Assembly: GCF_029946505.1 (NCBI RefSeq) | Contig: NZ_JARZHG010000009.1 | Coordinates: 170,927-234,926, forward strand | Source of the DNA: Polyangium sp. y55x31 | GTDB lineage: Bacteria; Myxococcota_A; Polyangia; Polyangiales; Polyangiaceae | Direction: 5' to 3' | DNA length: 64,000 bases | Shown here: one piece after another, positions 43,464-61,695 of the stretch | Layout of the letters: every line of letters starts with the position of its first letter | Position numbering within the stretch: the stretch's first letter is position 1 | Position numbers and translations under genes: made by a program | Notes under the pieces: model-generated | Told to the model about the DNA's origin: nothing | What the model saw: the letters and a program-made list of their open reading frames with translations, nothing else | The model's database searches: none

Positions 43464-44191
43464 GACGCTTCTCCCGCGCCGAGGCGGCGCTCGACGTATC
43501 GCACGTAGGCGACCGGCGGAAAAAAGCTCAATCCGATCGCCAGCATGGCCGGCACCCCGAATGCCGCGCCGCCGACCAGGAACACGTCGGCGAAGCGTGA
43601 TTGCTGCACGTGGAGCGCGCCGCCCGCGGTGAGGCCGTCGAGCATGAGCGTGGCGCAAAGATGCCCGACGCCCCAGAGGACGAACCGATCGGCGACGATC
43701 GGCTCGGCGAGCCCGAACCGCACGCGTTTTCGCATGAGCGCCGCATACCGGAGCGCCTCCACCGCGGCCCAGCCATAACAAATCGTCCGCAAGACCGCGC
43801 GTGGCCAGAGGGCCGAAGGCAATCCATTGGACCAGGGCACGACGTGGTTCACGACGGGCATCGCGAGGCCGACGATCACGAGTAGAAACGAAAGCACCTG
43901 GGCCCAGATCTCTTCCCGGCGGAAGACGAGCCAGACGAAGACCGCGACGGTCAGAAATCCCGTATCGACGACGAGCCCGCCGATCTCCACGGCGAGGGGC
44001 GCGGGCGTGCCGCCTCGCGTCACGGCGCTCGAGACCTGGATCGAATACCCCACGAGTGGAAGCAACATCGACAGACCGAGCAAGAGCTCCGGTGCTTTGC
44101 GCGTGCGCGCCGCAAGCCCGAGCAACCGTACGGCGACCGCCGCCGTGACGAGCCCGAACACCACCAGGACAATGAGGGTGAACGGTTTCAA
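43460..44191 (-). CDS. integral membrane protein (about 7 TM helices), hypothetical; first gene of the operon
   Basis: 243 aa, highly hydrophobic, with no recognisable motifs. Confidence 0.6.
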   Translation of the reverse strand: MKPFTLIVLVVFGLVTAAVAVRLLGLAARTRKAPELLLGLSMLLPLVGYSIQVSSAVTRGGTPAPLAVEIGGLVVDTGFLTVAVFVWLVFRREEIWAQVLSFLLVIVGLAMPVVNHVVPWSNGLPSALWPRAVLRTICYGWAAVEALRYAALMRKRVRFGLAEPIVADRFVLWGVGHLCATLMLDGLTAGGALHVQQSRFADVFLVGGAAFGVPAMLAIGLSFFPPVAYVRYVERRLGAGEAS

Positions 44192-44324
44192 ACCTGCCAG
44201 GAGACGCTACCACGACGGCCGGCTCGACGTCGAGCCCCGCGCGGCCGAGCAGGAAACGGGCATGGGCCGCGCCTGACGAAACGAAACGAAAGGCGCGGCC
44301 CATGTTTTTCCTATCGGTACATTT

Positions 44325-46880: not shown

Positions 46881-47004
46881 CGTGATCTCCCGTTTCTGTC
46901 GAACCCGTCACGGACCCGCGAATACATCTTCGCGCCGCATTCACGGGCGATCGCTCATGATGCGACCCACGAACGGGATGTCAAGCGAGGAATCGGCGCG
47001 CGTG

Positions 47005-48495
47005 TTATGGCGAATTCTTGCGCGAACCACGCCGACTTCTGGTCGCCGCCAATACCACGCCGATCGTACCGAAGAGACCCGCGCCCGCGCCGAGCCCGAA
47101 GCCGAGCAAGAATCGCTTTCCCCCGCCGGCCCCGTCCGGGCGCGGCTTCGCGACGATCCCGGCAGCAGGCACGGAATCGCGCAACATCTCTGAAAGATGG
47201 ACCTTGCCCCGCGCCACCTCGGACGACGGCGCGGCCGGCCGTACGCTCACGAGGTCCGCGCTCGGCGGCCCGCCCCAGATGTCGAAATCGGGATTCGGGC
47301 ACGTCACCGGGCCCTGCCAGCGATGGCGAAGAAGATAGCGCCCCTGAAATGTGCTCACCTCCGCGGGCACCGCCGCCTGCCCCTCGCCGCCGCGCCCGCC
47401 CTGGATCGGCGGCGCGTCCCGCAAAACGAGGTCCTCCCGGAGCGCCTCCTTGCGATAACGCGCATGAAGACGTGTGTGCACGGCCATCCCCGACGGCGCG
47501 CCCAGCAATCGCAACTCCTCGGGTGAAAGCATGGGCCCCGGGCACGGATCACACGACCCCGCGTCCCACGCGTATTCGGTCACGAACGCACCGGGATTCT
47601 CGTCGAGCGTCGCGTCGAAGAGCGACGCGTAGAGCTCGCCGAAGCGCGCGCGGGCCGACCCGTCGACCTCCACGTTCGTCGGAATCGTGAGGTTCGGAAA
47701 ATTCGCGGCCTCGTACCTCTTGTCCGCGAGCACGTGCACGACGAGGTCGTGCATGCCCGTCGCGTTGAGGGTCCCGAGGCGCAGCGGCAGCCCGACCGAC
47801 TCCGCGTCGAATTCGAATCGAATCGGCGAGAGCAGGGCGCGGCCGTCGCTCGCCTTTGGCTTCGGGACGTCGATGAGCACCACGAGGAGCTTCCACCCCG
47901 CTTCCGCGTACGAGCGCAAGACGGGCTCGGCGCCCTCCGGGAGGCTGTGACCCCCATCGGTGAGCCAACCGGTGAGATGCCCCAGATGGTCGGTGTCGAG
48001 GCGCAAGACGTTGAAATCACCGACCGTGTATGCTGCGTCGATCTTGACGGTGTGCGCGCCCTGGGGGCGGCGGCGCGTCGCGCCCTCATCCGGCCGCCCA
48101 CCGGCGAAGGCGTGCTCGTCCCGCGCCGCGATCGAGGTGATGTCCGCGTAGGAGCAGGGATCCTGCTGCCAGGATTCGACGAGCCGCGGCGCGCTGATCG
48201 CGTCGAGCCGCTCGAAGAGGTCGTTCGGGAGCAGTCTCACCCCGCTCGGGGAGACCGTGCCCCGCACGGGCAGGACCAGCATGGGCATGGTCAGCGTGTG
48301 GTCGTCCCCGACAGGACCGAAGTAGTCGGGTTGCATCGAGACCACGGTGCGTGTCCCGCTGCGCCCGATCACCACGGTCGTCGCGCGGCTCTCGGCCTTC
48401 ACGGTCGCGTTGCCCGCGTAGACCCCGCAAAACGCGTCGGCCGACGACGCCGCTGCCGTCACGAAGGCCCACGCCAAGACGCCCGCGGCGCGCAT
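47005..48495 (-). CDS. secreted DUF2330-like protein with a C-terminal membrane anchor, hypothetical
   Basis: Signal peptide, a large beta-rich ectodomain, and a C-terminal GFGLGAGAGLFGTIGVVLAA TM segment followed by a basic tail. Confidence 0.55.
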   Translation of the reverse strand: MRAAGVLAWAFVTAAASSADAFCGVYAGNATVKAESRATTVVIGRSGTRTVVSMQPDYFGPVGDDHTLTMPMLVLPVRGTVSPSGVRLLPNDLFERLDAISAPRLVESWQQDPCSYADITSIAARDEHAFAGGRPDEGATRRRPQGAHTVKIDAAYTVGDFNVLRLDTDHLGHLTGWLTDGGHSLPEGAEPVLRSYAEAGWKLLVVLIDVPKPKASDGRALLSPIRFEFDAESVGLPLRLGTLNATGMHDLVVHVLADKRYEAANFPNLTIPTNVEVDGSARARFGELYASLFDATLDENPGAFVTEYAWDAGSCDPCPGPMLSPEELRLLGAPSGMAVHTRLHARYRKEALREDLVLRDAPPIQGGRGGEGQAAVPAEVSTFQGRYLLRHRWQGPVTCPNPDFDIWGGPPSADLVSVRPAAPSSEVARGKVHLSEMLRDSVPAAGIVAKPRPDGAGGGKRFLLGFGLGAGAGLFGTIGVVLAATRSRRGSRKNSP

Positions 48496-48627
48496 GCCGT
48501 GCAGGGTATCGATGGCCGCGGCGCGTTGTCACGGTTTTTCCCTCGCGGCGCGGGGCCCGCTCCGGATACCCTGCGCGGCGTGGCTGACAAGGACGCCTCG
48601 GGCAGCCCCGAAGAGCGAGCCCGCCGC

Positions 48628-50838
48628 GTGTCCCGACGCTCGCGGCAAAACCTCGCCGTCGCGACGATCACGCTCGTCGTGCCGATCGCCGTCGCGCTCG
48701 TCCTGCTCGCCGAATCCGAGGCGGGGCTCGTGCGGGTCGCCTTCTTCAACCTGCACCTCGCCGAGCCCCACGCCGCGCTCGCCGTGGGCTTCGGCCTCGG
48801 ATGCGCGCTCGCCGCGACCGTCGCCCTCACCCGCTTCGTCTCGCAACGGCGCGCCTCCGCGTCCCTCCTCTGCCTCCCGCCCGCCTTCCTCGCGGCCACG
48901 ACCTTCGCCGCCTCGATCGCGTGGGTGCCGGATCCGCTCGCCAAGATGCCCGATCTCGCGTTCGGCGACCGCGCGCGGGCCGCGGCCTTCGCGCTGACCC
49001 TCCGCGCGTCCCTCGAAGGCGCGGGCCTCCTCGTCGCTTCGATCTCGCTCGGCATCGCCGCGCTCGCGCTCCGGCCGGCGCGCGCGACGGCGTCGATCAA
49101 CAAGGACAAACGTCCCCTCGCCGCCCTCGTCGTCGCGGCGCTCTCGCTCCCGGCGGCGGCGCTCCTCGCGCGCCTCCTCGGCAAGGGCGACCTCGGCCGC
49201 GACGCGGTCGGGAGCTGGGTCGCGGCGCTGCCCGCGGGCATGGGCCTCGTCGCCGTGGTGCTCGGCGCCTCGCGGACGAACCGCGGCGACGGGTATGCCG
49301 CCACGCGCCTGCTCGCTTCGGCGTGCGCCGGCATCGGCGGCGTCCTCCTCGCGGCGCTCGCGCCTGCGATGGGCGAGGTCATCACCATTTCGACACCCGG
49401 CACCACCCTTTCCCAGCTCGGCCGCGCCGCGATCGGCCTCCGCCGCACGACCGTCGAGCTCGCGGCCGCGGGCGCGCTCTTCGCCGTTCCGATCGTCCTC
49501 ACGACGCTCGTCGCGATGCCGCCGCGTGGCCTCTCGGGCGCCCTCGCCCGCGTGCGACCCGCTTTGCTCGTCACGTTCCTCCTCGCGCTCGCGCCGGCCC
49601 TCTTCGTCCTCCCCACGAACGCCGCGCTCCGCCACATCGAGTCGCTCGTCGCCGACCAGAGCCGCCTCGCCGCGAACCCCGGCGTCACCCTCGCGGACCC
49701 GTCCTTGCCTGCGGGCGCGCTCGTCGTGGACCTCGTGAGCCCCTTCCCGACCGAGCTCCCGCCCACGACGCCCACGCGGATCGTGCTCGGCTCTTCGTTT
49801 GCCCCCGCGCGCTGGGAGGACGGCGTGCCCGTCCGCTTCGACGGCCTCGACGCGAGCACGTACGACCTTCTCCTCGACGGCCCCTACCTCGGCGCGCCCC
49901 TGCGCGTCTCGCTGCCCGACCCGCGTATCGGCGCCCGCATCCTCGTGCCTGCGATTCCGCTCGCGCCGCCGCTGCTCGGGCCTACCGAGCCCATCCACAC
50001 CGATCCCGAGACGCCCCCCCATCCATCGCCCGACCACCTCGACGTCGACGCGACGTCGCCCGACACGTTCGTCCTCCACTGGCGCATCGCCGACATCGTC
50101 AAGGCGTTACGCCGCGTGCCCCGCGAGGACGCGACCGCGGACGGCCTCGGGTATCCGGCGCTCAGCGTGGCGATGCTGGAGATGTGGAAGGCGCACGGCA
50201 TACACAAGGACCCGCAGGATCGGAAGCGTGACCGCGTGATGATCCGTTTGTCGCCGGGCACGTCGCTCGAAAAGGCGCGCGCCGTCGTCGCCGCGGCTCT
50301 CTCGCTCGAACGCACGATGAAGACGCCCCACGGCGAGGAGCGCTCGATCCCGGTGTTCGAAGTGACGGTCGCTGAGCCGCTCGCGCCGCGCCCGCAGATG
50401 AAGCTCCCGACCCCTGCCGCCCCCGAGAATCCGGCGTCGGAGGCGGAGGCGGAGGCGCCGGTGGAGCCCGAGATCCTCTCGCTCTTCGGCAAACTCGCGC
50501 GCGAGGACGTCGACGCGCGGCTCGCCGTCCTCCGCGCCTCGGTCGACGCCTGCTACCAGGACCATGTCGAGGCGCACGGCCCCGAGAGGCTCGAACCGGT
50601 GATCCGGTTCGTCGTGGGCGCGGACGGGTTCGTCGGCCAGGTGAGCGTCCAGGAGCCTCGCCATGGGATCACCGTGGACGACGAAGAACGCGTCGCGCGC
50701 TTCAGCGGATGCCTGTATCGCGCCGCGCACCGGCTCACCTTCCCCGAACCGGAAGACGGCTCTTACGCAGGAATCCTCGTGAAGTTCACTCTGGGTCCTC
50801 TGCCGCAAAGCTCGGGCTGGCCGGCGGGGCCGCCCTGA
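48628..50838 (+). CDS. polytopic membrane protein with a C-terminal soluble domain, hypothetical
   Basis: More than 8 predicted TM helices, then a roughly 300-aa Pro-rich and globular C-terminal region. The start is uncertain (GTG 48628 or GTG 48580). The track ORF from 47734 overlaps the divergent gene and is rejected. Confidence 0.5.
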   Translation: MSRRSRQNLAVATITLVVPIAVALVLLAESEAGLVRVAFFNLHLAEPHAALAVGFGLGCALAATVALTRFVSQRRASASLLCLPPAFLAATTFAASIAWVPDPLAKMPDLAFGDRARAAAFALTLRASLEGAGLLVASISLGIAALALRPARATASINKDKRPLAALVVAALSLPAAALLARLLGKGDLGRDAVGSWVAALPAGMGLVAVVLGASRTNRGDGYAATRLLASACAGIGGVLLAALAPAMGEVITISTPGTTLSQLGRAAIGLRRTTVELAAAGALFAVPIVLTTLVAMPPRGLSGALARVRPALLVTFLLALAPALFVLPTNAALRHIESLVADQSRLAANPGVTLADPSLPAGALVVDLVSPFPTELPPTTPTRIVLGSSFAPARWEDGVPVRFDGLDASTYDLLLDGPYLGAPLRVSLPDPRIGARILVPAIPLAPPLLGPTEPIHTDPETPPHPSPDHLDVDATSPDTFVLHWRIADIVKALRRVPREDATADGLGYPALSVAMLEMWKAHGIHKDPQDRKRDRVMIRLSPGTSLEKARAVVAAALSLERTMKTPHGEERSIPVFEVTVAEPLAPRPQMKLPTPAAPENPASEAEAEAPVEPEILSLFGKLAREDVDARLAVLRASVDACYQDHVEAHGPERLEPVIRFVVGADGFVGQVSVQEPRHGITVDDEERVARFSGCLYRAAHRLTFPEPEDGSYAGILVKFTLGPLPQSSGWPAGPP

Positions 50839-50853
50839 TTTCCTTGGGAAAAC

Positions 50854-52143
50854 CTATCCCCCCGCCCCCTGATCCTCCACGTACGGCGGCAGCGCGAATC
50901 GTTTCTCCTCGCAACCGTACGCCGTCGGCGTCAACTGAATCACCGTGTGGAGCGGCACGCTGATCGACGGACACTCGCCCGGCGGCCGGTCCATCAGGTA
51001 CGCGTAAATCGCCCGCAGCACCGCCTGGTGCGCGATCACGAGCGTCGGCGACCGCTGGCGTTCGAGCTGGATGATCACCGGATCGAGCCTCTGGATCACG
51101 TCCTCGTACGACTCGCCGCGCGGATATCGATAGCGGAATTTGTCGGCGCTCCGCGCGGCCCACACGTCCGGCATCTCGATCCGCACCTGGTCGTACGTCA
51201 TCCCGTCGCACACGCCCGCGTCGATCTCGTCGAGCGCGCGCCAGGTCCGCGGCGACCGCGTGATCTTCGTCGCCGTATGGATCGTCCGCCGCAGCGTGCT
51301 CGTCCACACGGCGACCTCTTGATCCCGCGGCGCGTTTTTCCGAACGAACTCCGCCAGGTGCTTCGCGTATTCCTCGCCCGCGGGGGACAGCTCGGGGTCG
51401 CCGCCGATGCGGCCGTGCCGGTTGTAGTCGCTCTGCCCGTGCCTCGTCAGCCAGATCGGGCGCGGCGAGACGTGCAGGTCGATGAGCAGCGGCGCGAGGC
51501 GCGCGGGCAGGTAGCCGTGGATCCGGTTCAGGATCACCTGGCGGCCGACGTCGATGATCTTGATGTAGCTCTGGTTCGGATCATCGAGCGTCTCGTACAT
51601 GCTCTCGTAGTGGGCGATGCGCCGCAGGAAATCCTGCGCCGCCGCGTCCGGATCCATGTCGACGTAGTCCGGCGACTTGAGCTTCGTGTCGCGGACGTTC
51701 GCCTCGATCACACCCGGGTCGTTGCAGAACGACTCGATGAAGACGACGGGCAGCCCCTCCTTGCGGCACCGCTCCTCGACGAGGCGCCTGCGCTCCTTCG
51801 TGCTGTTCGTCGCGTCGAAGATGCCGACCTCGCCGCCCTCGCGCAGCCACGCGAGCATGTCGTCGAGCGCCGTCATGGCGAGGTCGTGCAGCACCTGCCG
51901 GCCTTCCTTGTTCGTCGGCGCGAAGAAGTCCGCTGGCTGGCTCGCGCCGATCTGCCGGCGACGGTAGCTGCCCACGTTGAACACGCGGGTCGGATGACCA
52001 AGCCAGCTCAGGTAACGCGCCACGCGGCGCCCGATGTACGTCTTTCCCCGCGCGGGGAGGCCGACCATCGACAGAACGGTCGTCGCCTTGTCTCGCTCGC
52101 CCGGCACCCTTTTGCTCCGTACCCCCGACACGGCACGCTCCAT
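50854..52143 (-). CDS. bifunctional 6-phosphofructo-2-kinase / fructose-2,6-bisphosphatase-like protein (eukaryote-type PFKFB)
   Basis: The kinase P-loop MVGLPARGKTYIGRRVARYL is nearly identical to animal PFKFB (VMVGLPARGKTYIS). The C-terminal histidine-phosphatase carries RHGQSDYN (RHG motif) and a second catalytic His region. Confidence 0.8.
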   Translation of the reverse strand: MERAVSGVRSKRVPGERDKATTVLSMVGLPARGKTYIGRRVARYLSWLGHPTRVFNVGSYRRRQIGASQPADFFAPTNKEGRQVLHDLAMTALDDMLAWLREGGEVGIFDATNSTKERRRLVEERCRKEGLPVVFIESFCNDPGVIEANVRDTKLKSPDYVDMDPDAAAQDFLRRIAHYESMYETLDDPNQSYIKIIDVGRQVILNRIHGYLPARLAPLLIDLHVSPRPIWLTRHGQSDYNRHGRIGGDPELSPAGEEYAKHLAEFVRKNAPRDQEVAVWTSTLRRTIHTATKITRSPRTWRALDEIDAGVCDGMTYDQVRIEMPDVWAARSADKFRYRYPRGESYEDVIQRLDPVIIQLERQRSPTLVIAHQAVLRAIYAYLMDRPPGECPSISVPLHTVIQLTPTAYGCEEKRFALPPYVEDQGAGG

Positions 52144-52198
52144 ACCGCCCTACGAGCATGAGGGGAAGCATGAACCGCGGACGCGCGGATCGTGACGA

Positions 52199-54010
52199 TC
52201 ACGCCTCCCGCAACACCGGCCGCGCCTCGCTGGTCCCATGAAGCTCGGCGTAGCTGCGCCTGAGGCCGAAGCAGCGCGCCGAGAGCTCACACCGTCCGCA
52301 CGCTTCCGCCCGGACGAACTCGCCGCCGTCGTGGTTGCTCGGGATCTCCGCGAGGTCGAAGAACACGCGTGGATCGACGGGCGCGAGGCAGAGCGGGATC
52401 CCGCACATCGACTCGAAGCCGAGCACCGGGATCCCGGCCTCGCGCGCGATCGCGAGGCCCTCTCGCATCGCGGGCAAGAGATCCGTGTACCGCGGGATCA
52501 AGCTCTCCGTGCGAGGCACGAGATCGGTGAATGCAGAGGCGACCGAGACGTTGATCTCCGCGGCCGGCCAGCGCGCCGCGACGAGGCGCACGAAGTCCGG
52601 GAAATCAGCCTGATTCGGCGCGCAGAAGACGAAGTTCAGGCGAACGCGGATCTTCGTCTGCGCGAGCGCGTCGAGGCCCCGCGCCGTCTTCTCGAACGTG
52701 CCCGGCGCGCGTGTAATGGCGTCCGAGATTTCGGCGCGGGATCCGTGCAGCGACACGAACGCCACGTCGAGCCCGGCCTCTTCGAGCTCGCGCGCGCGGC
52801 CCGGATCCGCGAGCCGCACGGCGTTCGTCTGCAGCTCCACGGCGAGCGCGCCTTCACGCTTCGCGAGCGCGACGTACGCAGAGAGACGCCCGTTCAAGGT
52901 CGGCTCGCCGCCCGAGACCTGGAGGACGCCGCCGGCGTGCGCGATCTCGAGGATCGCGCGGCGCACGGCGTCGTCGTCGGGCGCCGGCAGGTGCGTCGAG
53001 ACGAAGCAAAAATCACAGGCCTGGTTGCACTGAAACTGGATGCGCACGATGTGCGAAGGCACGAGCCGGCCGTCGGGCGCGCGGTGGACGTCGCGGGTCA
53101 CGAGCTCGCGATCGATCTGCTCGCGCACCGAGGAGATCACCGTGAGCTTGCGGCGGATCCGGTCCTCCGTGAGAGGCCGGAACGAAGACGCGGACTCACG
53201 CGCGAGGAGCGCGCGCGGCACGCCGGGACAACGATCCGCGACGACACAAGCGCTGCATGCGGGCACGCGCTCGTGGCCGGGGCGGTTCGCGCCGCCGGGG
53301 TTCAGCGCGTAGAGGTGCGCGAGGCGCGCGGGACGCTCGAACGAGCACGGAGGGATGGACGCGCCGGGGTCGAGCGAGAGCTGGATCGCGGCCTCCCGCG
53401 CGGCTTGATCGAGCCGTTCGAGCGCGCGCGCGGCGCCTTCGAGGGGCGCGAGGGTCGTGGGATCGGGCGCGTCCACGGGGATCGACACGAGGATGCGCGA
53501 CGCCTGTAGCTCCTCCGCGCGCAAGCGACCCGGGATCGCCGCGACGACATCGAGGTTTTTCCGGACGATCGGCGTCGAGATCTCCAGCGGGATCCCCGCG
53601 GCGGCGAGGGCACGCGCGCCCGCGAGCGCGGCGGAAAAACCGCCCTCGTCACGCGTGATCCCGTCGGCCTCGGAGCCGAACGCCGGCATGTGCACGCGCG
53701 CGATCGAGAGGCCGGCTTCCACGAGCGCACGCGCGAGGCTCTCCGTGACGAGCGTCGCGTTCGTCTCCAGCACGACGCGCTCGGCGCCGCGCGCGCGGGC
53801 GTGACGGACGAGCACCACGAGATCCCGGCGCATCGTGGGCTCGCCGCCCGTCAGCACGACCTCGCGCGCGCCCTTGGCGAGCGCCTCGTCGATGCGGGCG
53901 AGCACGGCCGCGGGGCGGACGAAGTCCGGCCGCTCGACGGGCCTTCGCGCCGAGCAGAAGCCGCAACCCTGGTTGCAGGTCTCGTTGGTGAGCACCCGCG
54001 CGACGCGCAT
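52199..54010 (-). CDS. tandem radical-SAM protein: two consecutive rSAM modules, each followed by a SPASM/twitch-like Cys cluster
   Basis: Module 1 has CNQGCGFCS and GGEPT, then CSACVVADRCPG. Module 2 has CNQACDFCF and SGGEPT, then CGRCELSARCFG. The start is set at ATG 54010 (MRVARVLTNETCNQGC), because the track start at 54217 would overlap the divergent gene. Confidence 0.7.
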   Translation of the reverse strand: MRVARVLTNETCNQGCGFCSARRPVERPDFVRPAAVLARIDEALAKGAREVVLTGGEPTMRRDLVVLVRHARARGAERVVLETNATLVTESLARALVEAGLSIARVHMPAFGSEADGITRDEGGFSAALAGARALAAAGIPLEISTPIVRKNLDVVAAIPGRLRAEELQASRILVSIPVDAPDPTTLAPLEGAARALERLDQAAREAAIQLSLDPGASIPPCSFERPARLAHLYALNPGGANRPGHERVPACSACVVADRCPGVPRALLARESASSFRPLTEDRIRRKLTVISSVREQIDRELVTRDVHRAPDGRLVPSHIVRIQFQCNQACDFCFVSTHLPAPDDDAVRRAILEIAHAGGVLQVSGGEPTLNGRLSAYVALAKREGALAVELQTNAVRLADPGRARELEEAGLDVAFVSLHGSRAEISDAITRAPGTFEKTARGLDALAQTKIRVRLNFVFCAPNQADFPDFVRLVAARWPAAEINVSVASAFTDLVPRTESLIPRYTDLLPAMREGLAIAREAGIPVLGFESMCGIPLCLAPVDPRVFFDLAEIPSNHDGGEFVRAEACGRCELSARCFGLRRSYAELHGTSEARPVLREA

Positions 54011-54128
54011 CGGGACATCGTACTCTAGTCCCGAGGGGGACGCCTCGCGAGCTCGCAGAGCGCCGTTCGGCGCTCTCGCCCATGCCTCTTGCGCGCGGCG
54101 CCGCGCGCGGCGAACAATGCGCTCTCCC

Positions 54129-57100
54129 ATGAGCCCCCGCGCCGGCACGACCGACACGAGCCTCCTGCTCGCCGAGGGCTGCAACCTCGCCTGCCCCGTC
54201 TGCGATTGCCGCGCCAAGGCAGCGGACGAAGGGACGCGGCAGCGCGAGCTCCGGCGCGGCGGCGGCGTGCTCGAGCTGCGCGGAGAAGCTTCACGTCTGA
54301 AGGATCTCCGCGCGATCGTGCAAGACGCGCGCGACGCGGGCTGGGGCGCGGTGTACGCGCGGACGAACGGCGTGGCCTACGCCGCGGAGGGCCGCGCCGA
54401 GGAGCTTCGCGCGGCGGGCCTCTCGGGGGTCGTGTTTTTCCTCGCGAGCGACCGGCCGGCCGTGCACGACGCGATCTCCCGCGTGCGAGGCGCATTCTCC
54501 GCCGGGCTCGCGGGTCTCGGCGCGATCGCGGCGACGGGGCTCGACATCCTCTTCGAGATCCCGGTGCTCGATCCTTCGATCCAGGACCTCCGCGGCGTCA
54601 TCACACGGCTCTCGGGCGCGGCGCCGAACGCGCGTCGCGTCCGCCTGTACACGCCCGCCGCGCTCCGGCCCGTGGATGGGCGTGCGCCGCGCGAGCTCTC
54701 GCCGCCGCGCTGGGATCGGGCGCGGGACGGGCTCCTCGCGGCGATCGGGTTTGCCCGGGAAAAAGGGCTCGAAATCACGCTGACCGAGCGCGACGGGATC
54801 CCGCTCTGCGCCGTCGCCACGAAAACCGCGGACGGCGGGATCGACGTCCCCGAGCGCTTGCTGGCCGATCGCGGCGGCCGCCCGATTCCGCGCCACGCGA
54901 CCTCCTCGCTCGCGCCGGGCTGCGACGCATGCGGCGCCGCGCGCGCCTGCCCCGGCACGACGACGCTTTACCTCCACACGCACGGCGCTTCGGGTTTGTC
55001 CCCTTTGCCCCGCGCCCCGCAGCAGCGCCCGCGCGAGCGCTGGGACGAGACCCGAAAAAGCGCGGCGCGCGCGGCCTTCTTCACGGTCCTCCGCCCGACG
55101 GTCCATTGCAACCAGGATTGCTGGTTCTGCAGCGCGAACGAGACCTCCCACAACGTGGAGGAAGATCCGGGCCGGATGATGCGCCGGATCGCGCGCCTCG
55201 GCCGCACGGGGGTCGAGCAGATCTCGTTCAGCGGCGGCGAGCCCACGCTCTCGCGCCACCTCGTCGATTACGTCTCCGTGGCGAAGCGGACTGGCGTCCG
55301 CAGCATCGAGCTCGTCACGAACGCGGTGCTCCTCGACAAACCGGAAAAAGTCGACGCCCTCGTCGCGGCGGGCCTGACGAACGTCTTCGTCTCGCTGCAC
55401 GCGCACGACGAGGCGCTCGCGCGGCTGCAGACCCGCAAAATGGGCGACCACGCGCGCACGGTGCGGGCCTTGCACCTCTTCGCGCGCCACGACGAGCTCC
55501 GGCTCGACGTGAACCACGTCGTCTCGGCCCAGAATTACCGGCACCTCGTGCGGTTCGTCGAGTGGATGCACGCCGAGTTCGGCACGCGCATCGGTATTTC
55601 GTTCGCGTACGTCACGCCGCAATACAAAGCCCTCGAGCGGCTCGCCGACCACGTGCCGCGCTTCTCCGACGTCATGCCCTACCTGAAGCGCGCCATCGCT
55701 CGGGCCAGCGAACTCGGCGTCGAGGTCGTGGTGGGCTCGCGCCAAGGCGTGCCTCCGTGCCAGCTCGAAGAAATGGCGCCGTGGAGCGACGTGCTCGTCG
55801 CGCTGAGCGGCGCGCTCACGGAGGACGCCCCGCAAAAGCAGAAAGGACCGGCCTGCGCCGATTGCCGCTTCGACCTCGTCTGCACGGGCGTGTGGAAACC
55901 GTATGCGGCGCTCTTCGGCACGGATGAGCTCCGCGCCGTCCCCGGCGAGAAAATCACGCCGGAGAAATGCCTCTCCGAGCCGCGCATCGCGCGTTTCCGC
56001 CCCGGCATCGATCGCCTCGACGAACTCCGCATCGGCGACGGCCGCATCCCGCGGAGCGACGAGATCCCGCTCCCGGAAGCGCCGCGCGAGCGTGTCCACC
56101 TGCCCGTCGCGCCCGCGTCCACGCCGCGCGCCGTCCGCGTCGCGATCGTCGGCACGGGCCGGCGGGGCCTCGCCTTCGCGGCTGCGCTCGGGCAAGCGGG
56201 CGGGTTCGTCCTTTCGGGCATCGCCTCCCCGCACGCGCCGGACAAGGATCTGCCGGAGATCGCGGCCGACGTGCCCCGCGCGCGGACGCTCGCCGAGCTC
56301 TGCGAGCTTGCCGCGATCGACGCGGTGATCGTCGCCACGAGCACGCGGCATCACGCGGAGATCACGCGCGACGCGATCACGCGGGGACTCCCCTGCCTCG
56401 TGGAAAAACCGCTCGGCGCGACGCTCGCCGAGGCCGAGGCGCTCGCTTCCGAGGCGAAAGAGCGCATCACGGTGGCGCAGCAGCTCCGCACGGCCGGCGG
56501 GCTCGAAGAGATGCTCTCCGTGCTCGGGGATCGCAAAGGGGTCGATCGTCCCGTCGAAATCGAGGTCGTTCACCGGGCCACCGCGACCTCGCCCGCGAGC
56601 TTGCACGCGTGGTCCCGCACGGCGCTTTACGAGCTCTTGATTCACCTCGGCGACGTCGCGCAGGCCGTCGCAGGCGAGGATCTCCACATCCGCAAGGCCA
56701 CGGCCAAGGGCGGCGGGAGGCCCGAGCGCGTGACCTTGCGCGCGCGCGGCACCGGCCCGTCGCAGCCGGACGTGACCATCGAGCTCTTGCTCGCCGAGGC
56801 CGCGGATGCCCTCGAAGTGCGGGCGCGTCTCGGCGATGGACGGCGTTTGTCCTGGATACGCTCGGAGGGGCGTGACCTCGTGGAGGTGAGCGACGCAGGC
56901 GGCAAACGGACCCGCACGCCGCCGCGCGGGGGCGATCTCGCGCGCCTGCTCGTCGCGTTCCGCGAGAGCGTGGTTCGGGGCGATCGGCCGAAGGTCTCGG
57001 CGGAGGACGGCGTGCGGGCGATGCGGCTCTCGGCGGAGGCGATCACGGCGCTGGAGGCCGCGGGCGCGCCGTTCGACCGGGCCGCGGAACCGAAACGCGT

Positions 57101-57134
57101 GGCCTCGGTTCCGCTCCGGGATCGGGTGGGTTGA
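54129..57134 (+). CDS. tandem radical-SAM protein (two rSAM/SPASM-like modules) fused to a C-terminal Gfo/Idh/MocA NAD(P)-binding oxidoreductase domain
   Basis: Module 1 has CNLACPVCDC (CxxxCxxC), then CDACGAARACPG. Module 2 has CNQDCWFCS and SGGEPT, then CADCRFDLVCTG. The C-terminal Rossmann region reads VAIVGTGRRGLAFAAALG...LPCLVEKPL. The track ORF from 53835 is an over-extension. Confidence 0.7.
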   Translation: MSPRAGTTDTSLLLAEGCNLACPVCDCRAKAADEGTRQRELRRGGGVLELRGEASRLKDLRAIVQDARDAGWGAVYARTNGVAYAAEGRAEELRAAGLSGVVFFLASDRPAVHDAISRVRGAFSAGLAGLGAIAATGLDILFEIPVLDPSIQDLRGVITRLSGAAPNARRVRLYTPAALRPVDGRAPRELSPPRWDRARDGLLAAIGFAREKGLEITLTERDGIPLCAVATKTADGGIDVPERLLADRGGRPIPRHATSSLAPGCDACGAARACPGTTTLYLHTHGASGLSPLPRAPQQRPRERWDETRKSAARAAFFTVLRPTVHCNQDCWFCSANETSHNVEEDPGRMMRRIARLGRTGVEQISFSGGEPTLSRHLVDYVSVAKRTGVRSIELVTNAVLLDKPEKVDALVAAGLTNVFVSLHAHDEALARLQTRKMGDHARTVRALHLFARHDELRLDVNHVVSAQNYRHLVRFVEWMHAEFGTRIGISFAYVTPQYKALERLADHVPRFSDVMPYLKRAIARASELGVEVVVGSRQGVPPCQLEEMAPWSDVLVALSGALTEDAPQKQKGPACADCRFDLVCTGVWKPYAALFGTDELRAVPGEKITPEKCLSEPRIARFRPGIDRLDELRIGDGRIPRSDEIPLPEAPRERVHLPVAPASTPRAVRVAIVGTGRRGLAFAAALGQAGGFVLSGIASPHAPDKDLPEIAADVPRARTLAELCELAAIDAVIVATSTRHHAEITRDAITRGLPCLVEKPLGATLAEAEALASEAKERITVAQQLRTAGGLEEMLSVLGDRKGVDRPVEIEVVHRATATSPASLHAWSRTALYELLIHLGDVAQAVAGEDLHIRKATAKGGGRPERVTLRARGTGPSQPDVTIELLLAEAADALEVRARLGDGRRLSWIRSEGRDLVEVSDAGGKRTRTPPRGGDLARLLVAFRESVVRGDRPKVSAEDGVRAMRLSAEAITALEAAGAPFDRAAEPKRVASVPLRDRVG

Positions 57135-57140
57135 GCCCCT

Positions 57141-60100
57141 TCAGGGCGTGGTCATGCACTGATCCAGCAGTCGATAGCCGTTCACGTGCGTGGCCGACAC
57201 CAGCGTGCGCGACACCGTATTGCCGCTCGACCCCCAGCCCCGCCGGTAGAGCACGTCGTACGTCCCCGAAGGCACCTTCCCGCCATAGGTGTTCGGACTG
57301 AGCACGTAGACCCCGGGCGACTGATACTGATAGCTGTAGCCGCCGATGTAATGCGCGGCGTCCGTATCCTTCGCCACGAGGTAGATGTCCGCGCCGTCGT
57401 AATCGGTGTTCTTCGTCGGCAGCGGCCCGCCCGCGAGCGTGAGCGTCCCGCCGACGATCGACACCGGGATGTCCACGTTCAGCGTACTCGCGCCCGCCGG
57501 AATCGCGACGTTCGTCGCGAGCAACCGATAGCCGTTCACGTGCGTGGCCGACACCAGCGTACGCGTCACCGTGTTCCCGCTCGACCCCCAGTTCCGCCGG
57601 TAGAGCACGTCATACGTGCCCGCAGGCACCTTGCCGCCGTAGGCGTTCGCAACCAGCACGTACACGCCCGGCGACTGGTACTGGTAGCTGTAGCCTCCGA
57701 TGTAATGCGCGGCCTTCGTGTCCTTCGCCACGAGGTAGATGTCCGCGCCGTCGTAATCGGTGTTCGTCGCGGGTAGCGCCGCGCCCGCAAGCGTCAGCGT
57801 CCCGGTCACGCTCGCCACCGGAATATCAACGTCGAGCGTGTTCGCCCCCGCCGCGAGCGTGACGTTCGTCGCGAGCAACCGATAGCCGTTCACGTGCGTG
57901 GCCGTCAGCAGCGTACGCGTCACCGTATTCCCGCTCGACCCCCAATTCCGCCGGTAAAGCACGTCGTACGTGCCCGCGGGCACCTTGCCGCCGTAGGCAT
58001 TCGCAACCAGCACGTACACGCCCGGGGACTGGTACTGGTAGCTATACCCGCCGATGTAATGCGCAGCCTTCGTGTCCTTCGCCACGAGGTAGATGTCCGC
58101 ACCGTCGTAATCGGTGTTCGTCGCCGGCAGCGCCGCGCCCGCGAGCTTCAGGGTCCCGGTCACGCTCGCCACCGGAATATCCACGTCGAGCGTGTTCGCC
58201 CCTGCCGAGAGCGTGACGTTCGTCGCCAGGAGCCGGTAGCCGTTCACGTGCGTGGCCGTCAGCAGCGTACGCGTCACCGTATTCCCGCTCGACCCCCAGT
58301 TCCGCCGATAGAGCACGTCATACGTGCCCGCGGGCACCTTGCCGCCGTAGGCGTTCGCAACCAGCACGTACACGCCCGCCGATTGGTACTGGTAGCTGTA
58401 GCCGCCGATGTAATGCGCGGCCCCCGTGTCCTTCGCCACGAGGTAGATGTCCGCGCCGTCGTAATCGGTGTTCGTCGCCGGAAGCGCCGCGCCCGCGAGC
58501 GTCAGCGTCCCGGTCACACTCGCCACCGGAATGTCCACGTTCAGCGTGTTCGCCCCCGCCGCGAGCGTGACGTTCGTCGCCAGGAGCCGGTAGCCGTTCA
58601 CGTGCGTCGCCGTCGGCAGCGTACGCGTCACCGTATTCCCGCTCGACCCCCAGTTCCGCCGGTAGAGCACGTCATACGTGCCCGCGAGCACCTTGCCACC
58701 GTAGGTATTCGCCGAGAGTACGTACACGCCCGGCGACTGATACTGATAGCTGTAGCCGCCGATGTAATGCGCGGCCCCCGTATCCTTCGCCACGAGGTAG
58801 ATGTCCGCGCCGTCGTAATCGGTGTTCGTCGCCGGAAGCGGCCCGCCCGCGAGCGTCAGCGTCCCGCTCACGGTCGCCACCGGGATGTTCACGTCGAGCT
58901 TGCTTTCCCCCGCGCCGATGACGACGCCCGTCGCGAGCATCCGGTAACCATTCACGTGCGTGGCCGAAGGCAGCGTGCGCGACACCGTGTTCCCGCTCGA
59001 CCCCCAGCCCCGCCGATAAAGCACGTCGTACACGCCCGCGACCACCTTGCCGCCGTACGTGTTCGGGGAGAGCACGTACACGCCCGGCGATTGATACTGG
59101 TAGCTGTAGCCGCCGATGTAATGCGCGGCCTTCGTGTCCTTTGCGACGAGGTAGATGTCCGCGCCGTCGTAATCGGTGTTCGTCGCCGGCAGCGCCGCGC
59201 CCGCGAGCGTGATCGTCCCATTCACGACGCCCACCGGGATGTCGACGTCGCCCGTGCCGGGGTGCGTGGTCATGCAAGCCCCGCCGTTGCAGCCGGCCGA
59301 GGGCGCGCCCTTGCAGGCGCCCTGCACGTCGCACGCGTCTCCGGTCGTGCACGAAATGCCGTCGTTGCAAGACGTCCCCGGCGACGCGATCACCTTCGGG
59401 AACGACTGCGTGGCCTCATCGCACGCGCCATACGTCACGCACGGGCTGATGCTCACGGGCTTCTGCGGCACGTTCACGTGCACGCACCCCTCCGCGTCCG
59501 CGCCCGCCTGGCTCGGCGCGCAGACCTCCGCGCCCGTGCACCACGCCCCGTCGTCGCAAGCCGCGTTGCTCGTCGTGTGCGACGCGAGGCCGCCCGCGCA
59601 TTTGTCGATCGTGCACGCGACCCCGTCGTCCGGCACGTTCGTGTCGTCGTTCGTCGCGACGCACCCGGCCGCGAGATCACACGAATCGTCCGTGCACGCA
59701 TTGCCGTCGTCACACACCCGCGGGCTGCCGCCGGCGCAGACGCCCGCCTGGCAGGCCTGATCCACGATGCAAAGCGACGTCTGGCACGCCGTCCCGTTGG
59801 CGAGCGGCGTATGCTGGCAGTTCCCGCCTACGACCGCGTCGACCGTGCACGGGTTCTGATCGTCGCACATGGGCGTGTAGCACTGCGCCATCCCGCCCAC
59901 GACCTGGCAGGCCTGGTTCATCACGAGGCAGACGTTCGGCGTGCAGGGATCGTCCGTGCACCCGCCGTTGCCGTCGTCGTGATACCCCGGGTCGCACGTG
60001 CACACGTACGAAGCGCCTTCTCCCGCGCAGACCGTCTTGTTCGGCATGACGCAGGGATTCGGCAAACACGGATCCGTCGTGCAGCCGCCGTTTCCATCGT

Positions 60101-61013
60101 CGTGATAGCCCCCCGCGGCGTCGCACGTATCGCAGGAGGCCCCAGCGAAACCAGCGTCGCACGTGCAGACCACGTGGCCGCCTTCGACCGCGCACGCGCC
60201 ATGGCCCGAGCAGCTCGACGGCGTGCACACCTCGTCGATCACGCAGGCGCCGTTCTGATCGTGATACCCGGGATCGCAGCCGCAGACCGGCGATCCTCCT
60301 TCGACGGTGCATACACTCGCGTGCGGGGCCACGCACGGGTTCGGCAGGCACGGGTCCGTCGTGCAGCCGCCGTTTCCATCGCTGTGATAACCTCCCGCGT
60401 CGTCACACGCGTCGCAAGCGCTCCCGCTCCAGCCGACGTCGCACGTGCACACGGCCTCGCCGCCCTCGTCGTTGCAGCTCCCGTGACCGCTGCACGTCGT
60501 CGGCAGGCACGTCTTGTCCTCGATGCAAACGCCGCCCTCGTCGTGCGTGCCCGGCTTGCACACGCACTTCGCGGTGCCCGAGCTCCCATCACAAACGCGA
60601 TCGGGCGACATGCACGGATCCGGCACGCACGGGTCCGTCGTGCAGCCGCCGCTCCCATCGTCGTGATAACCGCCCGCGGCATCACACGAAGCGCACGTCG
60701 CGCCCGCCCAGCCCTCCGCGCACGTGCAGACGGCCGACCCACTCGAATCGTCACACGTCCCGTGTTCGCCGCAGGGGTTGTTCTGGCAGCTCGCCTCGAG
60801 CACGCACACGCCGCCGTCGGGGTAAGATCCCGGCGGACACCCCGCGTCCGGCTCAGAGGCATCCGGCTCCGAGGCATCGGGCGTCTCGGTGACGTCCCGC
60901 CCGGCGTCGACGGGGCCCGGCGGTATGCCGCCGTCGTCGCCGCAGCCGAGGGCCACGAGCGCGAGGAACACGAGGAGCGTGGGGAGCAAACCCGTCGGGG
61001 GGCGCTTTCGCAT
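57141..61013 (-). CDS. large secreted lipoprotein: N-terminal EGF-like/Cys-rich repeat region plus six near-identical 118-aa tandem repeats
   Basis: The start is set at ATG 61013 (MRKRPPTGLLPTLLVFLALVALGC, lipobox). Repeated CTTDPC(L/V)PNPC...GYHD Cys modules are followed by six copies of NTDYDGADIYLVAKDTxAAHYIGGYSYQYQSPGVYVL...YDVLYRRNWGSSGNTVTRTL... Confidence 0.75.
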   Translation of the reverse strand: MRKRPPTGLLPTLLVFLALVALGCGDDGGIPPGPVDAGRDVTETPDASEPDASEPDAGCPPGSYPDGGVCVLEASCQNNPCGEHGTCDDSSGSAVCTCAEGWAGATCASCDAAGGYHDDGSGGCTTDPCVPDPCMSPDRVCDGSSGTAKCVCKPGTHDEGGVCIEDKTCLPTTCSGHGSCNDEGGEAVCTCDVGWSGSACDACDDAGGYHSDGNGGCTTDPCLPNPCVAPHASVCTVEGGSPVCGCDPGYHDQNGACVIDEVCTPSSCSGHGACAVEGGHVVCTCDAGFAGASCDTCDAAGGYHDDGNGGCTTDPCLPNPCVMPNKTVCAGEGASYVCTCDPGYHDDGNGGCTDDPCTPNVCLVMNQACQVVGGMAQCYTPMCDDQNPCTVDAVVGGNCQHTPLANGTACQTSLCIVDQACQAGVCAGGSPRVCDDGNACTDDSCDLAAGCVATNDDTNVPDDGVACTIDKCAGGLASHTTSNAACDDGAWCTGAEVCAPSQAGADAEGCVHVNVPQKPVSISPCVTYGACDEATQSFPKVIASPGTSCNDGISCTTGDACDVQGACKGAPSAGCNGGACMTTHPGTGDVDIPVGVVNGTITLAGAALPATNTDYDGADIYLVAKDTKAAHYIGGYSYQYQSPGVYVLSPNTYGGKVVAGVYDVLYRRGWGSSGNTVSRTLPSATHVNGYRMLATGVVIGAGESKLDVNIPVATVSGTLTLAGGPLPATNTDYDGADIYLVAKDTGAAHYIGGYSYQYQSPGVYVLSANTYGGKVLAGTYDVLYRRNWGSSGNTVTRTLPTATHVNGYRLLATNVTLAAGANTLNVDIPVASVTGTLTLAGAALPATNTDYDGADIYLVAKDTGAAHYIGGYSYQYQSAGVYVLVANAYGGKVPAGTYDVLYRRNWGSSGNTVTRTLLTATHVNGYRLLATNVTLSAGANTLDVDIPVASVTGTLKLAGAALPATNTDYDGADIYLVAKDTKAAHYIGGYSYQYQSPGVYVLVANAYGGKVPAGTYDVLYRRNWGSSGNTVTRTLLTATHVNGYRLLATNVTLAAGANTLDVDIPVASVTGTLTLAGAALPATNTDYDGADIYLVAKDTKAAHYIGGYSYQYQSPGVYVLVANAYGGKVPAGTYDVLYRRNWGSSGNTVTRTLVSATHVNGYRLLATNVAIPAGASTLNVDIPVSIVGGTLTLAGGPLPTKNTDYDGADIYLVAKDTDAAHYIGGYSYQYQSPGVYVLSPNTYGGKVPSGTYDVLYRRGWGSSGNTVSRTLVSATHVNGYRLLDQCMTTP
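57186..59240. repeat. six tandem ~354-bp near-identical coding repeats inside gene 57141..61013
   Basis: The motif GTGTCCTTCGCCACGAGGTAGATGTCCGCGCCGTCGTAATCGGTGTT recurs at about 57372, 57717, 58074, 58425, 58784 and 59139 with roughly 354-bp spacing. Confidence 0.8.
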
Positions 61014-61695
61014 GGCGCGCACTTTATCGGGGTTCGTTCGGGCTCGGAAGAGCGAGCGAGCGTTCGACGCGCAGCAGCCGACATGGGTGGACCGGGAGCG
61101 GAGAGCGCGACGCCGCCAGGGCCTCCGCGCCTTCGAGGCCTCCCGCGTGGTCACCGCTTCGGTTTGCCAAAGCGACTCGCACGGTTGTTAGCCGATTTTT
61201 GCGGTCGCTCATCATGCCACCGTCGATTGTCGGCGGTGCGGATGAGGGGCGCTGCAGATGGATGCCCGCTTTGCACATCTCGCCGCGCTGCGCAAGCGGA
61301 TGCTAATGGGCGTGGGCGCCTCGGGCTTCAGCTCCTCCTTATACGTGACGATGAGGCACTGGGGGGGTCGAGAAGGCCCCACCTCGTTGCGTTGCCGAAT
61401 TCGCTTTGTGCACAATCAACTTCGCGGCACTCAAAGTGTCACGGACGAAAATTCCCTCTCGTCGTTCTCGAATTTTGATGTATATTCATTACGTCCATAC
61501 ATCGTTAACGAGAATACGACATGGCGACCACCCGTGAGGCCGTGGGCGCATTGGCGCGCCCATACGACGGGGCCTCTCCCGCACGTGCGCGAGTCAACTC
61601 GGGTTCGCTCAAAAAGGAGCAAATAACACGAGAGCGGCGCAGAAGACCGTGATGATGAGCTTTTCGCTGCGTTCTGGCGGCGATCTGGAGGACCG

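Follow-up and report, generated by a model that had tools for sequence, protein, structure and literature searches.

The window considered here, the whole 64-kb stretch of DNA analysed from Polyangium sp. y55x31 (G+C content about 70%), carries two divergent genes, designated A and B, which are predicted to encode functional paralogues of an uncharacterised "twin" radical S-adenosylmethionine (SAM) family. Gene A encodes two radical-SAM modules, and gene B encodes two such modules followed by a dehydrogenase domain. The closest protein relatives were from Polyangium species, with 92-93% identity. A preliminary description had joined A, B and an adjacent gene for a PFK-2/FBPase-2 enzyme (PFK2) into one candidate undescribed small-molecule tailoring locus; its observations were confirmed, and its interpretation was partly supported. 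The features of A and B are as follows.

52199-54010, minus strand: gene A, 603 aa (Pfam, homologues)
53954..53977, minus strand: cluster motif of A module 1, C12NQGC16GFC19 (sequence, alignment)
53228..53347, minus strand: auxiliary cysteines of A module 1, C222, C252, C255 and C261 (PPC ... CSACVVADRCPG)
53006..53029, minus strand: cluster motif of A module 2, C328NQAC332DFC335 (sequence, alignment)
52271..52405, minus strand: auxiliary cysteines of A module 2, C536/C541, C571, C574 and C580 (CGRCELSARCFG)
54011..54128, no strand: divergent intergenic region of A and B, 118 bp (gap between the start codons)
54129-57134, plus strand: gene B, 1001 aa (Pfam, homologues)
54141..55028, plus strand: B module 1, residues 5-300 (blastp to A module 2, E 2e-17)
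55068..55973, plus strand: B module 2, residues 314-615 (Pfam Radical_SAM)
56127..57068, plus strand: Gfo/Idh/MocA NAD(P)-dependent oxidoreductase domain of B, residues ~667-980 (PF01408)

Both proteins fall within the Radical SAM superfamily (PF04055), as each contains CxxxCxxC and scored above the gathering cut-off of 29.5 bits. The Pfam model matched A in two stretches (E 3e-42, 144.9 bits), and the protein was resolved into two HxsC-like, Twitch-type modules at residues 1-290 and 315-603. The auxiliary cysteines follow the pattern C222, then C252-x2-C255-x5-C261-PG, in module 1 and C536/C541, then C571-x2-C574-x5-C580-FG, in module 2. Every motif cysteine and both GGE motifs of A were invariant in an alignment of 25 homologues. 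The search returned 1089 homologues, and the best 120 were 53-93% identical and nearly all about 600 aa long. The AlphaFold2 model of A was confident, with a mean predicted local distance difference test score (pLDDT) of 91.5 and a predicted template modelling score (pTM) of 0.81. The ratio of nonsynonymous to synonymous substitution rates (dN/dS), computed for A, B and PFK2 against their orthologues on contig L095, was 0.24 for A. Gene A is therefore intact, conserved and under purifying selection. A contig scan with the A sequence alone yielded one true orthologue; its patterns were too specific.

B was found to begin with a divergent radical-SAM-like module, to continue with a canonical one and to end in a Gfo/Idh/MocA dehydrogenase. 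Module 1 contains CxxxCxxCxC at 54180-54209 (C18-x3-C22-x2-C25(-x-C27)) and auxiliary cysteines at 54807-54950 (C227, then C265-x2-C268-x5-C274-PG). It has R-GE instead of GGEP and gave no Pfam Radical_SAM match, and it keeps the predicted beta/alpha barrel in the AlphaFold2 model. The earlier statement that A and B each hold two complete CxxxCxxC modules was borne out for the cysteine motifs, but not for the GGEP motif and Pfam match of this module, which is complete only in its cysteine motifs and predicted fold and not in the canonical SAM-binding motif. Module 2 was matched by Pfam Radical_SAM at residues 323-477 (E 4e-27, 95.8 bits), and contains CNQDCWFC at 55107-55130 (C327-x3-C331-x2-C334), SFSGGEPT, and auxiliary cysteines at 55758-55883 (C544, then C576-x2-C579-x5-C585-TG). 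Across 17 B homologues the eight auxiliary cysteines, the CNQDCxFC and SFSGGEPT of module 2, and the GxGxxG (G675/G677) and E759-K760-P761 of the dehydrogenase were invariant, while the module 1 CxxxCxxC was kept only in those homologues having the N-terminus.

The C-terminal part of B is, as first proposed, a Gfo/Idh/MocA (PF01408) enzyme with a Rossmann domain; it also has the EKP motif and a C-terminal alpha/beta domain. The PF01408 match covers residues 669-779 (E 9e-17, 62.3 bits against a cut-off of 24), and the predicted fold is complete. Foldseek gave full-length two-domain matches with template modelling (TM) scores of 0.63-0.82 at 14-23% identity. All 50 of the best matches were sugar, nucleotide-sugar or cyclitol oxidoreductases, among them GnnA (TM 0.82), myo-/scyllo-inositol dehydrogenases, 1,5-anhydrofructose reductase and GenD2. 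The fold, GxGxxG and EKP are common to the B domain and the solved oxidoreductases GnnA (7bvj, UDP-GlcNAc 3-dehydrogenase), IolG (3euw), 2glx and GenD2 (6nor), but none of the solved structures shows a fusion behind two radical-SAM modules. For B, 268 homologues were found, and the best 120 (934-1070 aa, 37-93% identity) all combined radical-SAM and Gfo/Idh/MocA domains. The AlphaFold2 model (pLDDT 80.9, pTM 0.41) is good within the domains, which are flexibly linked. With a dN/dS of 0.30, B too is intact, conserved and under purifying selection, and neither gene is a degraded duplicate, in agreement with the preliminary description.

The four modules, each of about 290 aa, are homologous and collinear over about 280 aa (blastp E 5e-5 to 9e-37). 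Since A and B align end to end (30% identity), their ancestor is deduced to have already been a twin that was then duplicated. An exhaustive search returned 13,900 matches, with 412 clusters at 50% identity and E<1e-30; many members were about 600 aa, and some had 3-5 module stretches or up to about 1,500 aa. Within this family, tandem architecture is therefore common, contrary to the earlier view that tandem radical-SAM proteins are rare. The CxxCx5C(P/F/T)G auxiliary motif was located after each of the four modules, as had been claimed. The layout in every module is PxC ... CxxCx5CxG, giving four auxiliary cysteines with no CxxxC after CxxCx5C, and SPASM (PF13186) gave no match at E<0.01 in A or B. 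For these two reasons the modules were classed as Twitch-like and the earlier SPASM label was dropped. The cysteines are the predicted ligands of one auxiliary [4Fe-4S] cluster per module, which together with the SAM-site cluster in each module would give up to four clusters per protein.

The best solved relatives of A and B by sequence were BlsE, MoaA, GDGT-MAS, SkfB and viperin (E 1e-11 to 1e-4), headed by BlsE (7vob/7voc), MoaA (1tv7) and viperin at E 1e-9 to 1e-11. Foldseek gave the same five at 17-21% identity, together with SuiB. BlsE, MoaA and viperin resemble A and B in that a short extension C-terminal to the radical-SAM core provides the cysteine ligands of one auxiliary cluster, the arrangement called "Twitch"; the nearest folds, BlsE, SkfB and MoaA, are Twitch enzymes. 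Unlike A and B, these enzymes have a single module, their identity to A and B is only 17-21%, and the auxiliary arrangement PxC ... CxxCx5CxG is that of the SPASM core and not that of MoaA. No substrate-binding residue could be mapped on A or B from this comparison. PADLOC detected generic viperin-core similarity only.

No NCBIfam model reached its cut-off for A or B, consistent with the earlier remark that the combination was not a recognised one. The highest scores were those of HxsC4 (NF038332; 134.5 bits for A and 122.4 for B against 500) and HxsC (TIGR03977; 101.8 and 86.3 bits against 267.9). Further sub-threshold matches to MoaA, AhbD, StsB, TrsS, Tes and PqqE all ran through the generic core, and for MoaA (TIGR02666/TIGR02668) A scored no more than 112 bits (cut-off 325) and 105 bits (cut-off 284). 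The FbiC, CofG and CofH models were not among the best 25 of the 55-59 matches for either protein, which speaks against FbiC, named at the outset as an example of a known pathway. FbiC, the FO synthase, is a fusion of CofG and CofH, in which two radical-SAM domains of one polypeptide act consecutively on one pathway intermediate. Its halves come from different families, whereas A and B consist of one module type in two paralogous copies, both of them with a predicted auxiliary cluster. No description of the A/B family was found in the literature on tandem or dual radical-SAM proteins, Myxococcota radical SAM, PFK-2 of myxobacteria or DUF483, in which the one relevant paper was that on the HXS system (PMC13128918). 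As judged from these comparisons, the A/B subfamily and its architecture match no curated family and are undescribed.

HxsC/HxsC4 was the best curated match of both A module 2 and the canonical module of B, and the alignment took in nearly the full length of the HxsC model (positions 34-288 of 292). The differences are that the scores are far below the cut-offs, that the A and B modules are fused in pairs, and that B carries a dehydrogenase. In the His-Xaa-Ser (HXS) antiphage system, HxsB and HxsC act as maturases of the protein HxsA (PMC13128918), whereas A and B lie in a chromosomal housekeeping setting with no defence island. HxsA, HxsB, HxsD and HxS repeats are all absent from the window; no HxS repeat was present in any frame of 44000-64000, and no HxsD or SPASM protein was present among the window neighbours.

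The occurrence of A and B in other genomes indicates that they are components of a widespread multi-enzyme system of Myxococcota and related metagenome bacteria. They are divergent neighbours in the window and in contigs L003, L095 and L039, convergent in L055, and in tandem in L099 (Minicystis), with A directly upstream of B; in L002, L016, L036 and L043 they lie 5-9 kb apart. When all predicted proteins of 39 loci were clustered, radical-SAM proteins accounted for 98 genes, and only two other families occurred in more than three non-redundant loci, namely a protein of about 150 aa (5 loci) and the family c1 (12 loci). The c1 proteins (480-1090 aa) have an N-terminal part weakly like B12-dependent radical-SAM enzymes (BchE, HpnJ; E 0.001-0.005), a Cx24CxxC motif (e.g. 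GCAY...RGCSFC) and a DUF483-like GYPxCC C-terminal part. This family is unannotated; examples are L018:656-2530, L036:5572-8166, L015:4278-7983 and P0365. Fusions were found of c1 with A-type twins (P0269, P0277 and P0280, about 1,450 aa), of c1 with a B-type twin and the dehydrogenase (P0382, 1,431 aa), and of a twin with a DUF483-like part (P0284). A third twin enzyme shares about 28% identity with A and is usually the immediate neighbour of B, a radical-SAM protein of about 430 aa recurs in six loci (54-67% identity), and a 279-aa DUF483-like gene directly follows B in L016, L019, L031 and L099.

The fullest version of the A/B system seen is L099:1-23015 (Minicystis sp. metagenome-assembled genome, GCA_047601355.1), where nine radical-SAM genes lie in 23 kb. 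The types present include a fusion of radical SAM with aldo/keto reductase, B12-binding and SPASM types, a GT2 and a PMT_2-type GT-C transferase. The GT-C protein has orthologues in L044 and L048, to which L055 was joined by clustering, and a UDP-GlcNAc 2-epimerase is encoded in L025 and L039. In a Pfam scan of 131 neighbours in the related loci, only Radical_SAM occurred more than three times (7 members); three AAA-ATPase families had 3 members each, and no protease or transporter family exceeded three. Neither the third twin, the 430-aa radical-SAM protein, c1 nor the DUF483-like partners were found in the 64-kb window, which holds A and B only, and the rest of the window has no further radical-SAM module and no c1/c2 homologue. 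The recurrent partners, being other radical-SAM proteins and the DUF483-like protein, thus lie outside the window, and the tailoring locus is not the self-contained one originally envisaged.

Several low-G+C metagenome contigs (L059, L062, L073, L076, L079, L083-L085 and L089) were observed to contain HxsC-like genes in arrays of 5-9, with pairs of modules fused in some of them; these genes are distant relatives of A and B (20-28% identity). In L085 an 87-aa HxS-repeat peptide ending HTSHGSHGSHGSHGSHGSHGQW (3528-3791) lies upstream of such an array. These arrays look like expanded His-Xaa-Ser systems. Separately, L012:3629-7288, beside an A orthologue, encodes a 274-aa radical-SAM protein, a 571-aa secreted MopE-type protein with CxGxDDNCDGxxDEG repeats and an HxsD-family protein. 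L012 is the only locus with A beside a Hxs-like set.

The gene at 50854-52143 encodes, by its sequence, a genuine PFKFB-type bifunctional enzyme. Both domains exceeded their gathering scores (6PF2K, E 2e-75, 253.2 bits against 27; His_Phos_1, 6e-39, 134.1 against 21.7), residues 21-415 aligned with the rat testis PFKFB and human PFKFB3 structures with both domains end to end (E 1e-127), and the protein has GLPARGKT as its Walker A motif as well as the RHG motif of the phosphatase. Animal PFKFB isoforms have long regulatory termini that are missing in the bacterial PFK2. Existing annotations name the enzyme across Sorangiineae, in Polyangium, Sorangium, Chondromyces, Minicystis and Byssovorax (see also loci L096-L098); it is a eukaryote-like regulatory enzyme in bacteria and is not new. 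Its dN/dS was 0.09. As first noted, it lies downstream of A on the same strand; the distance is 55 bp, and it is probably co-transcribed with A in the Polyangium lineage. Elsewhere the adjacency was seen only in the Polyangium-like contigs L093, where A is 68% identical and overlaps PFK2 by 4 bp, and L095, where A is 80% identical and three small open reading frames (ORFs) separate the two genes.

PFK2 was absent from all 37 B loci of a metagenome scan, five non-redundant ones of which also carry A, and from the A/B loci L001, L002, L003 (of which 8.2 kb, ending inside A, are covered), L011, L012, L013, L092 and L094. The Minicystis A-B cluster has no PFK2, though the same 5.9-Mb contig encodes PFK2 elsewhere, and no radical-SAM gene lies within 8 kb of PFK2 in Sorangium cellulosum, Chondromyces crocatus or Minicystis rosea. 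Because PFK2 is missing from A/B loci elsewhere and its own loci lack radical-SAM genes, the adjacency was taken to be a feature of the Polyangium lineage. PFK2 looks like a conserved central-metabolism gene that is a bystander and no part of the A/B system. Linkage of the gene pair with PFKFB was to be checked across Myxococcota; adjacency of A and PFK2 was seen only in Polyangium relatives, and the argument from this gene for a sugar-phosphate substrate falls away.

The 118 bp between the two ATGs were correctly given in the preliminary description; the local regulator that it expected was not supported, as neither a regulator gene nor a conserved operator was found. Both start codons are confirmed by homologue N-termini and by the frame shift of the alternative ATG in L003. 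The part of the intergenic region beside the B start is conserved (GCATTGTTCGCC ... GCGCGCAAG, with GCATTGTTCGCC just upstream of the B start). A scan of the region for promoters gave no sigma-70-like site and Rfam gave no match; terminator-like matches were set aside since they lie inside genes. An insertion of about 50 bp within 54040-54095 is found here and is absent from the orthologous regions of L003 and L095. It carries a perfect 20-bp palindrome, AGAGCGCCGTTCGGCGCTCT, at 54057-54076, which was rejected as an operator because the insertion is missing from those two contigs.

The genes around A and B, picked by codon-position G+C unless stated otherwise, are as follows.

44325-46880, minus strand: pullulanase/alpha-amylase
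47005-48495, minus strand: DUF2330 gene
48496-50838, plus strand: membrane protein, ending at 50838
50854-52143, minus strand: PFK-2/FBPase-2 (Pfam)
57141-61154, minus strand: cysteine-rich lipoprotein, convergent with B
from ~61696, plus strand: further gene, no name assigned

From the membrane protein to the lipoprotein the intergenic gaps are 15, 55, 118 and 6 bp. With gaps of only 6-118 bp, no precursor ORF fits around A and B, and the statement that none lies nearby was upheld. The remaining genes of the window are housekeeping genes (class II ribonucleotide reductase, SppA, RNase J, thiolase, cytochrome b/c, a BamA-like protein and kinases), and the window is a chromosomal housekeeping region, not a secondary-metabolite or defence island. 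An Rfam scan of the window gave no riboswitch or other RNA. The DUF2330 gene and a plus-strand ORF at 47734-50838 overlap by about 760 nt on opposite strands; the ORF product is an Ala-rich multi-pass membrane protein without a Pfam match, and its gene probably starts after 48495. The gene at 57141-61154 encodes a predicted 1337-aa lipoprotein with the lipobox LALVALGCGDD and EGF-like cysteine-rich repeats, and contains, after the EGF-like part, a tandem repeat at 57172-59250 (5.9 copies of a 354-nt, 118-aa unit with 89% match). No homologue of this lipoprotein was found in any of the related loci examined. It was rejected as a partner of A and B for want of homologues in related loci, as were the DUF2330 protein, the membrane protein at 48496-50838 and the pullulanase, the last of which reappears only in the Polyangium-like contig L095, as local synteny.

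The explanation tentatively favoured, with slightly less than even confidence, is that A and B supply two of the enzymes in a so far undescribed radical pathway of several steps, which acts on a carbohydrate-like small molecule, with a sugar, nucleotide-sugar or cyclitol as the candidate substrate class. Each active module would reductively cleave SAM to a 5'-deoxyadenosyl radical that abstracts hydrogen from the substrate, and the auxiliary clusters would serve in substrate anchoring or in electron transfer. Within one chain, the two modules would perform consecutive radical steps, and the B dehydrogenase would oxidise a secondary alcohol, or reduce a ketone left by a radical step, on the same molecule. 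A sugar or cyclitol is plausible since all 50 of the best fold matches of the B dehydrogenase domain are carbohydrate or cyclitol oxidoreductases; this part of the substrate class first proposed stands, while the part that relied on the PFKFB gene does not. A carbohydrate is favoured further because BlsE, the closest solved relative of A and B, is a sugar-acid decarboxylase, because the next ones, viperin and MoaA, act on nucleotides, and because some of the clusters also encode a GT2, a GT-C, an aldo/keto reductase or a UDP-GlcNAc 2-epimerase. A small-molecule substrate in general is favoured because nothing RiPP-like (ribosomally synthesised and post-translationally modified peptide) recurs.

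Several observations weigh against this explanation. Genes for sugar activation or sugar transfer are not universal neighbours, and the glycosyl-related neighbours (GT2, GT-C and UDP-GlcNAc 2-epimerase) occur in about the number expected by chance and so are a weak hint only. Close fold matches include SkfB and SuiB, which act on peptides, and GDGT-MAS, which acts on lipids, and the nearest named family, HxsC/HxsC4, matures the protein HxsA (PMC13128918). Because the carbohydrate neighbours are near chance level and the nearest named family is protein-acting, protein and lipid or cofactor substrates are retained as less probable alternatives. Module 1 of B, lacking GGEP, may be non-catalytic. 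A orthologues occur without B in L001, L011, L012, L013, L092, L093 and L094, and the two proteins may therefore serve different pathways. The 4-bp overlap of A and PFK2 in L093 makes co-expression likely in this lineage and leaves a small probability of a local functional link between the two genes.

Were A and B instead protein or peptide maturases like HxsB and HxsC, the target would be encoded elsewhere or, conceivably, be the cysteine-rich lipoprotein at 57141-61154, and the dehydrogenase would act on a modified side chain. This is considered unlikely, though its probability is not negligible. In its favour, the best curated matches were HxsC4 and HxsC, with the HxsC model aligned over nearly its whole length; distant relatives form HxsC-like arrays of 5-9 genes, one beside a HxS-repeat peptide (L085:3528-3791); the L012 orthologue of A has as neighbours HxsD, a radical-SAM gene and a secreted cysteine-rich protein of MopE type; SkfB and SuiB are among the fold matches; and HxsB/C are protein maturases (PMC13128918). 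It is opposed by scores far below the cut-offs (134 against 500 and 102 against 268), by a window with no HxS repeats, HxsD or space for a precursor ORF, and by the finding of no conserved small ORF, protease or exporter across the 131 neighbours. The initial judgement against a RiPP was supported by the missing precursor and by the lack of a recurrent protease or transporter family. Furthermore, the lipoprotein has no homologue in related loci, the cluster motif begins at residue 12 (A) or 18 (B) and so leaves no N-terminal recognition domain, and the best 50 fold matches of the dehydrogenase act on carbohydrates or cyclitols. The tailoring of a lipid or a tetrapyrrole-like cofactor, by analogy with Tes/GDGT-MAS or AhbC/AhbD/NirJ/BchE, is rated as quite improbable. 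The sub-threshold NCBIfam matches to AhbD, AhbC, NirJ and Tes, the presence of GDGT-MAS among the best solved relatives and the weak likeness of c1 to BchE, HpnJ and the B12-dependent MCR methylase (E 0.001-0.005) are consistent with it. Some loci also contain an acyltransferase, PhyH, thiolases or P450, and A is as highly conserved as would be expected of a housekeeping modification. These similarities, however, do not extend beyond the generic radical-SAM core and score far under the cut-offs, neighbouring lipid or tetrapyrrole genes do not recur, and the nearest folds of the dehydrogenase are sugar and cyclitol enzymes rather than biliverdin-reductase-like ones.

That A, B and the PFKFB-like enzyme form one sugar-phosphate tailoring locus, as originally modelled, is very improbable and already largely contradicted by the genomic neighbourhoods. 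The co-directional arrangement of A and PFK2 at 55 bp, their 4-bp overlap in L093 and continuing linkage in L095 speak for it, as does the dehydrogenase in pointing to sugars. However, no A or B locus beyond the Polyangium clade contains PFK2. It is conserved as a single gene throughout Sorangiineae, where its neighbours in Sorangium, Chondromyces and Minicystis rosea are unrelated ones, and its full PFKFB signature (E 1e-127) and dN/dS of 0.09 fit the canonical role. Since PFK2 is absent elsewhere and the recurrent partners lie outside the window, the three genes are not a self-contained locus. The chance that A or B is a decaying, functionless duplicate is practically nil. Module 1 of B has lost GGEP and was missed by the Pfam model, but the reading frames are intact, full-length orthologues keep the invariant motifs down to 37% (B) and 53% (A) identity, dN/dS is 0.24-0.30, and the divergent module 1 is conserved as such throughout the B family; for the whole genes, decay is already refuted.

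The yield of the window itself is the smaller part of the finding, as it holds two components only, in a housekeeping region, beside an apparently unrelated PFKFB neighbour. More cautiously still than the carbohydrate-like substrate of A and B, we suggest that a multi-radical-SAM pathway of Myxococcota, of which A and B would be two parts, with up to nine radical-SAM genes in 23 kb, twin enzymes and others of 3-5 modules, fusions to NAD(P) oxidoreductases and a divergent B12-like/DUF483 protein, may use successive radical steps to make or modify a novel envelope component or cofactor derived from carbohydrate, by chemistry outside the assigned subfamilies. Most radical-SAM proteins are without a known reaction, and the A/B family stands out among them in having two cluster-rich modules per chain, one member fused to a sugar-type dehydrogenase, and twins fused to a B12-like/DUF483 protein. 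Its members are also numerous and conserved within Myxococcota, a phylum in which new chemistry is sought. Once the substrate is identified, a radical transformation of several steps, new in kind, would probably come to light, and with it the reason for the clusters of up to nine enzymes.

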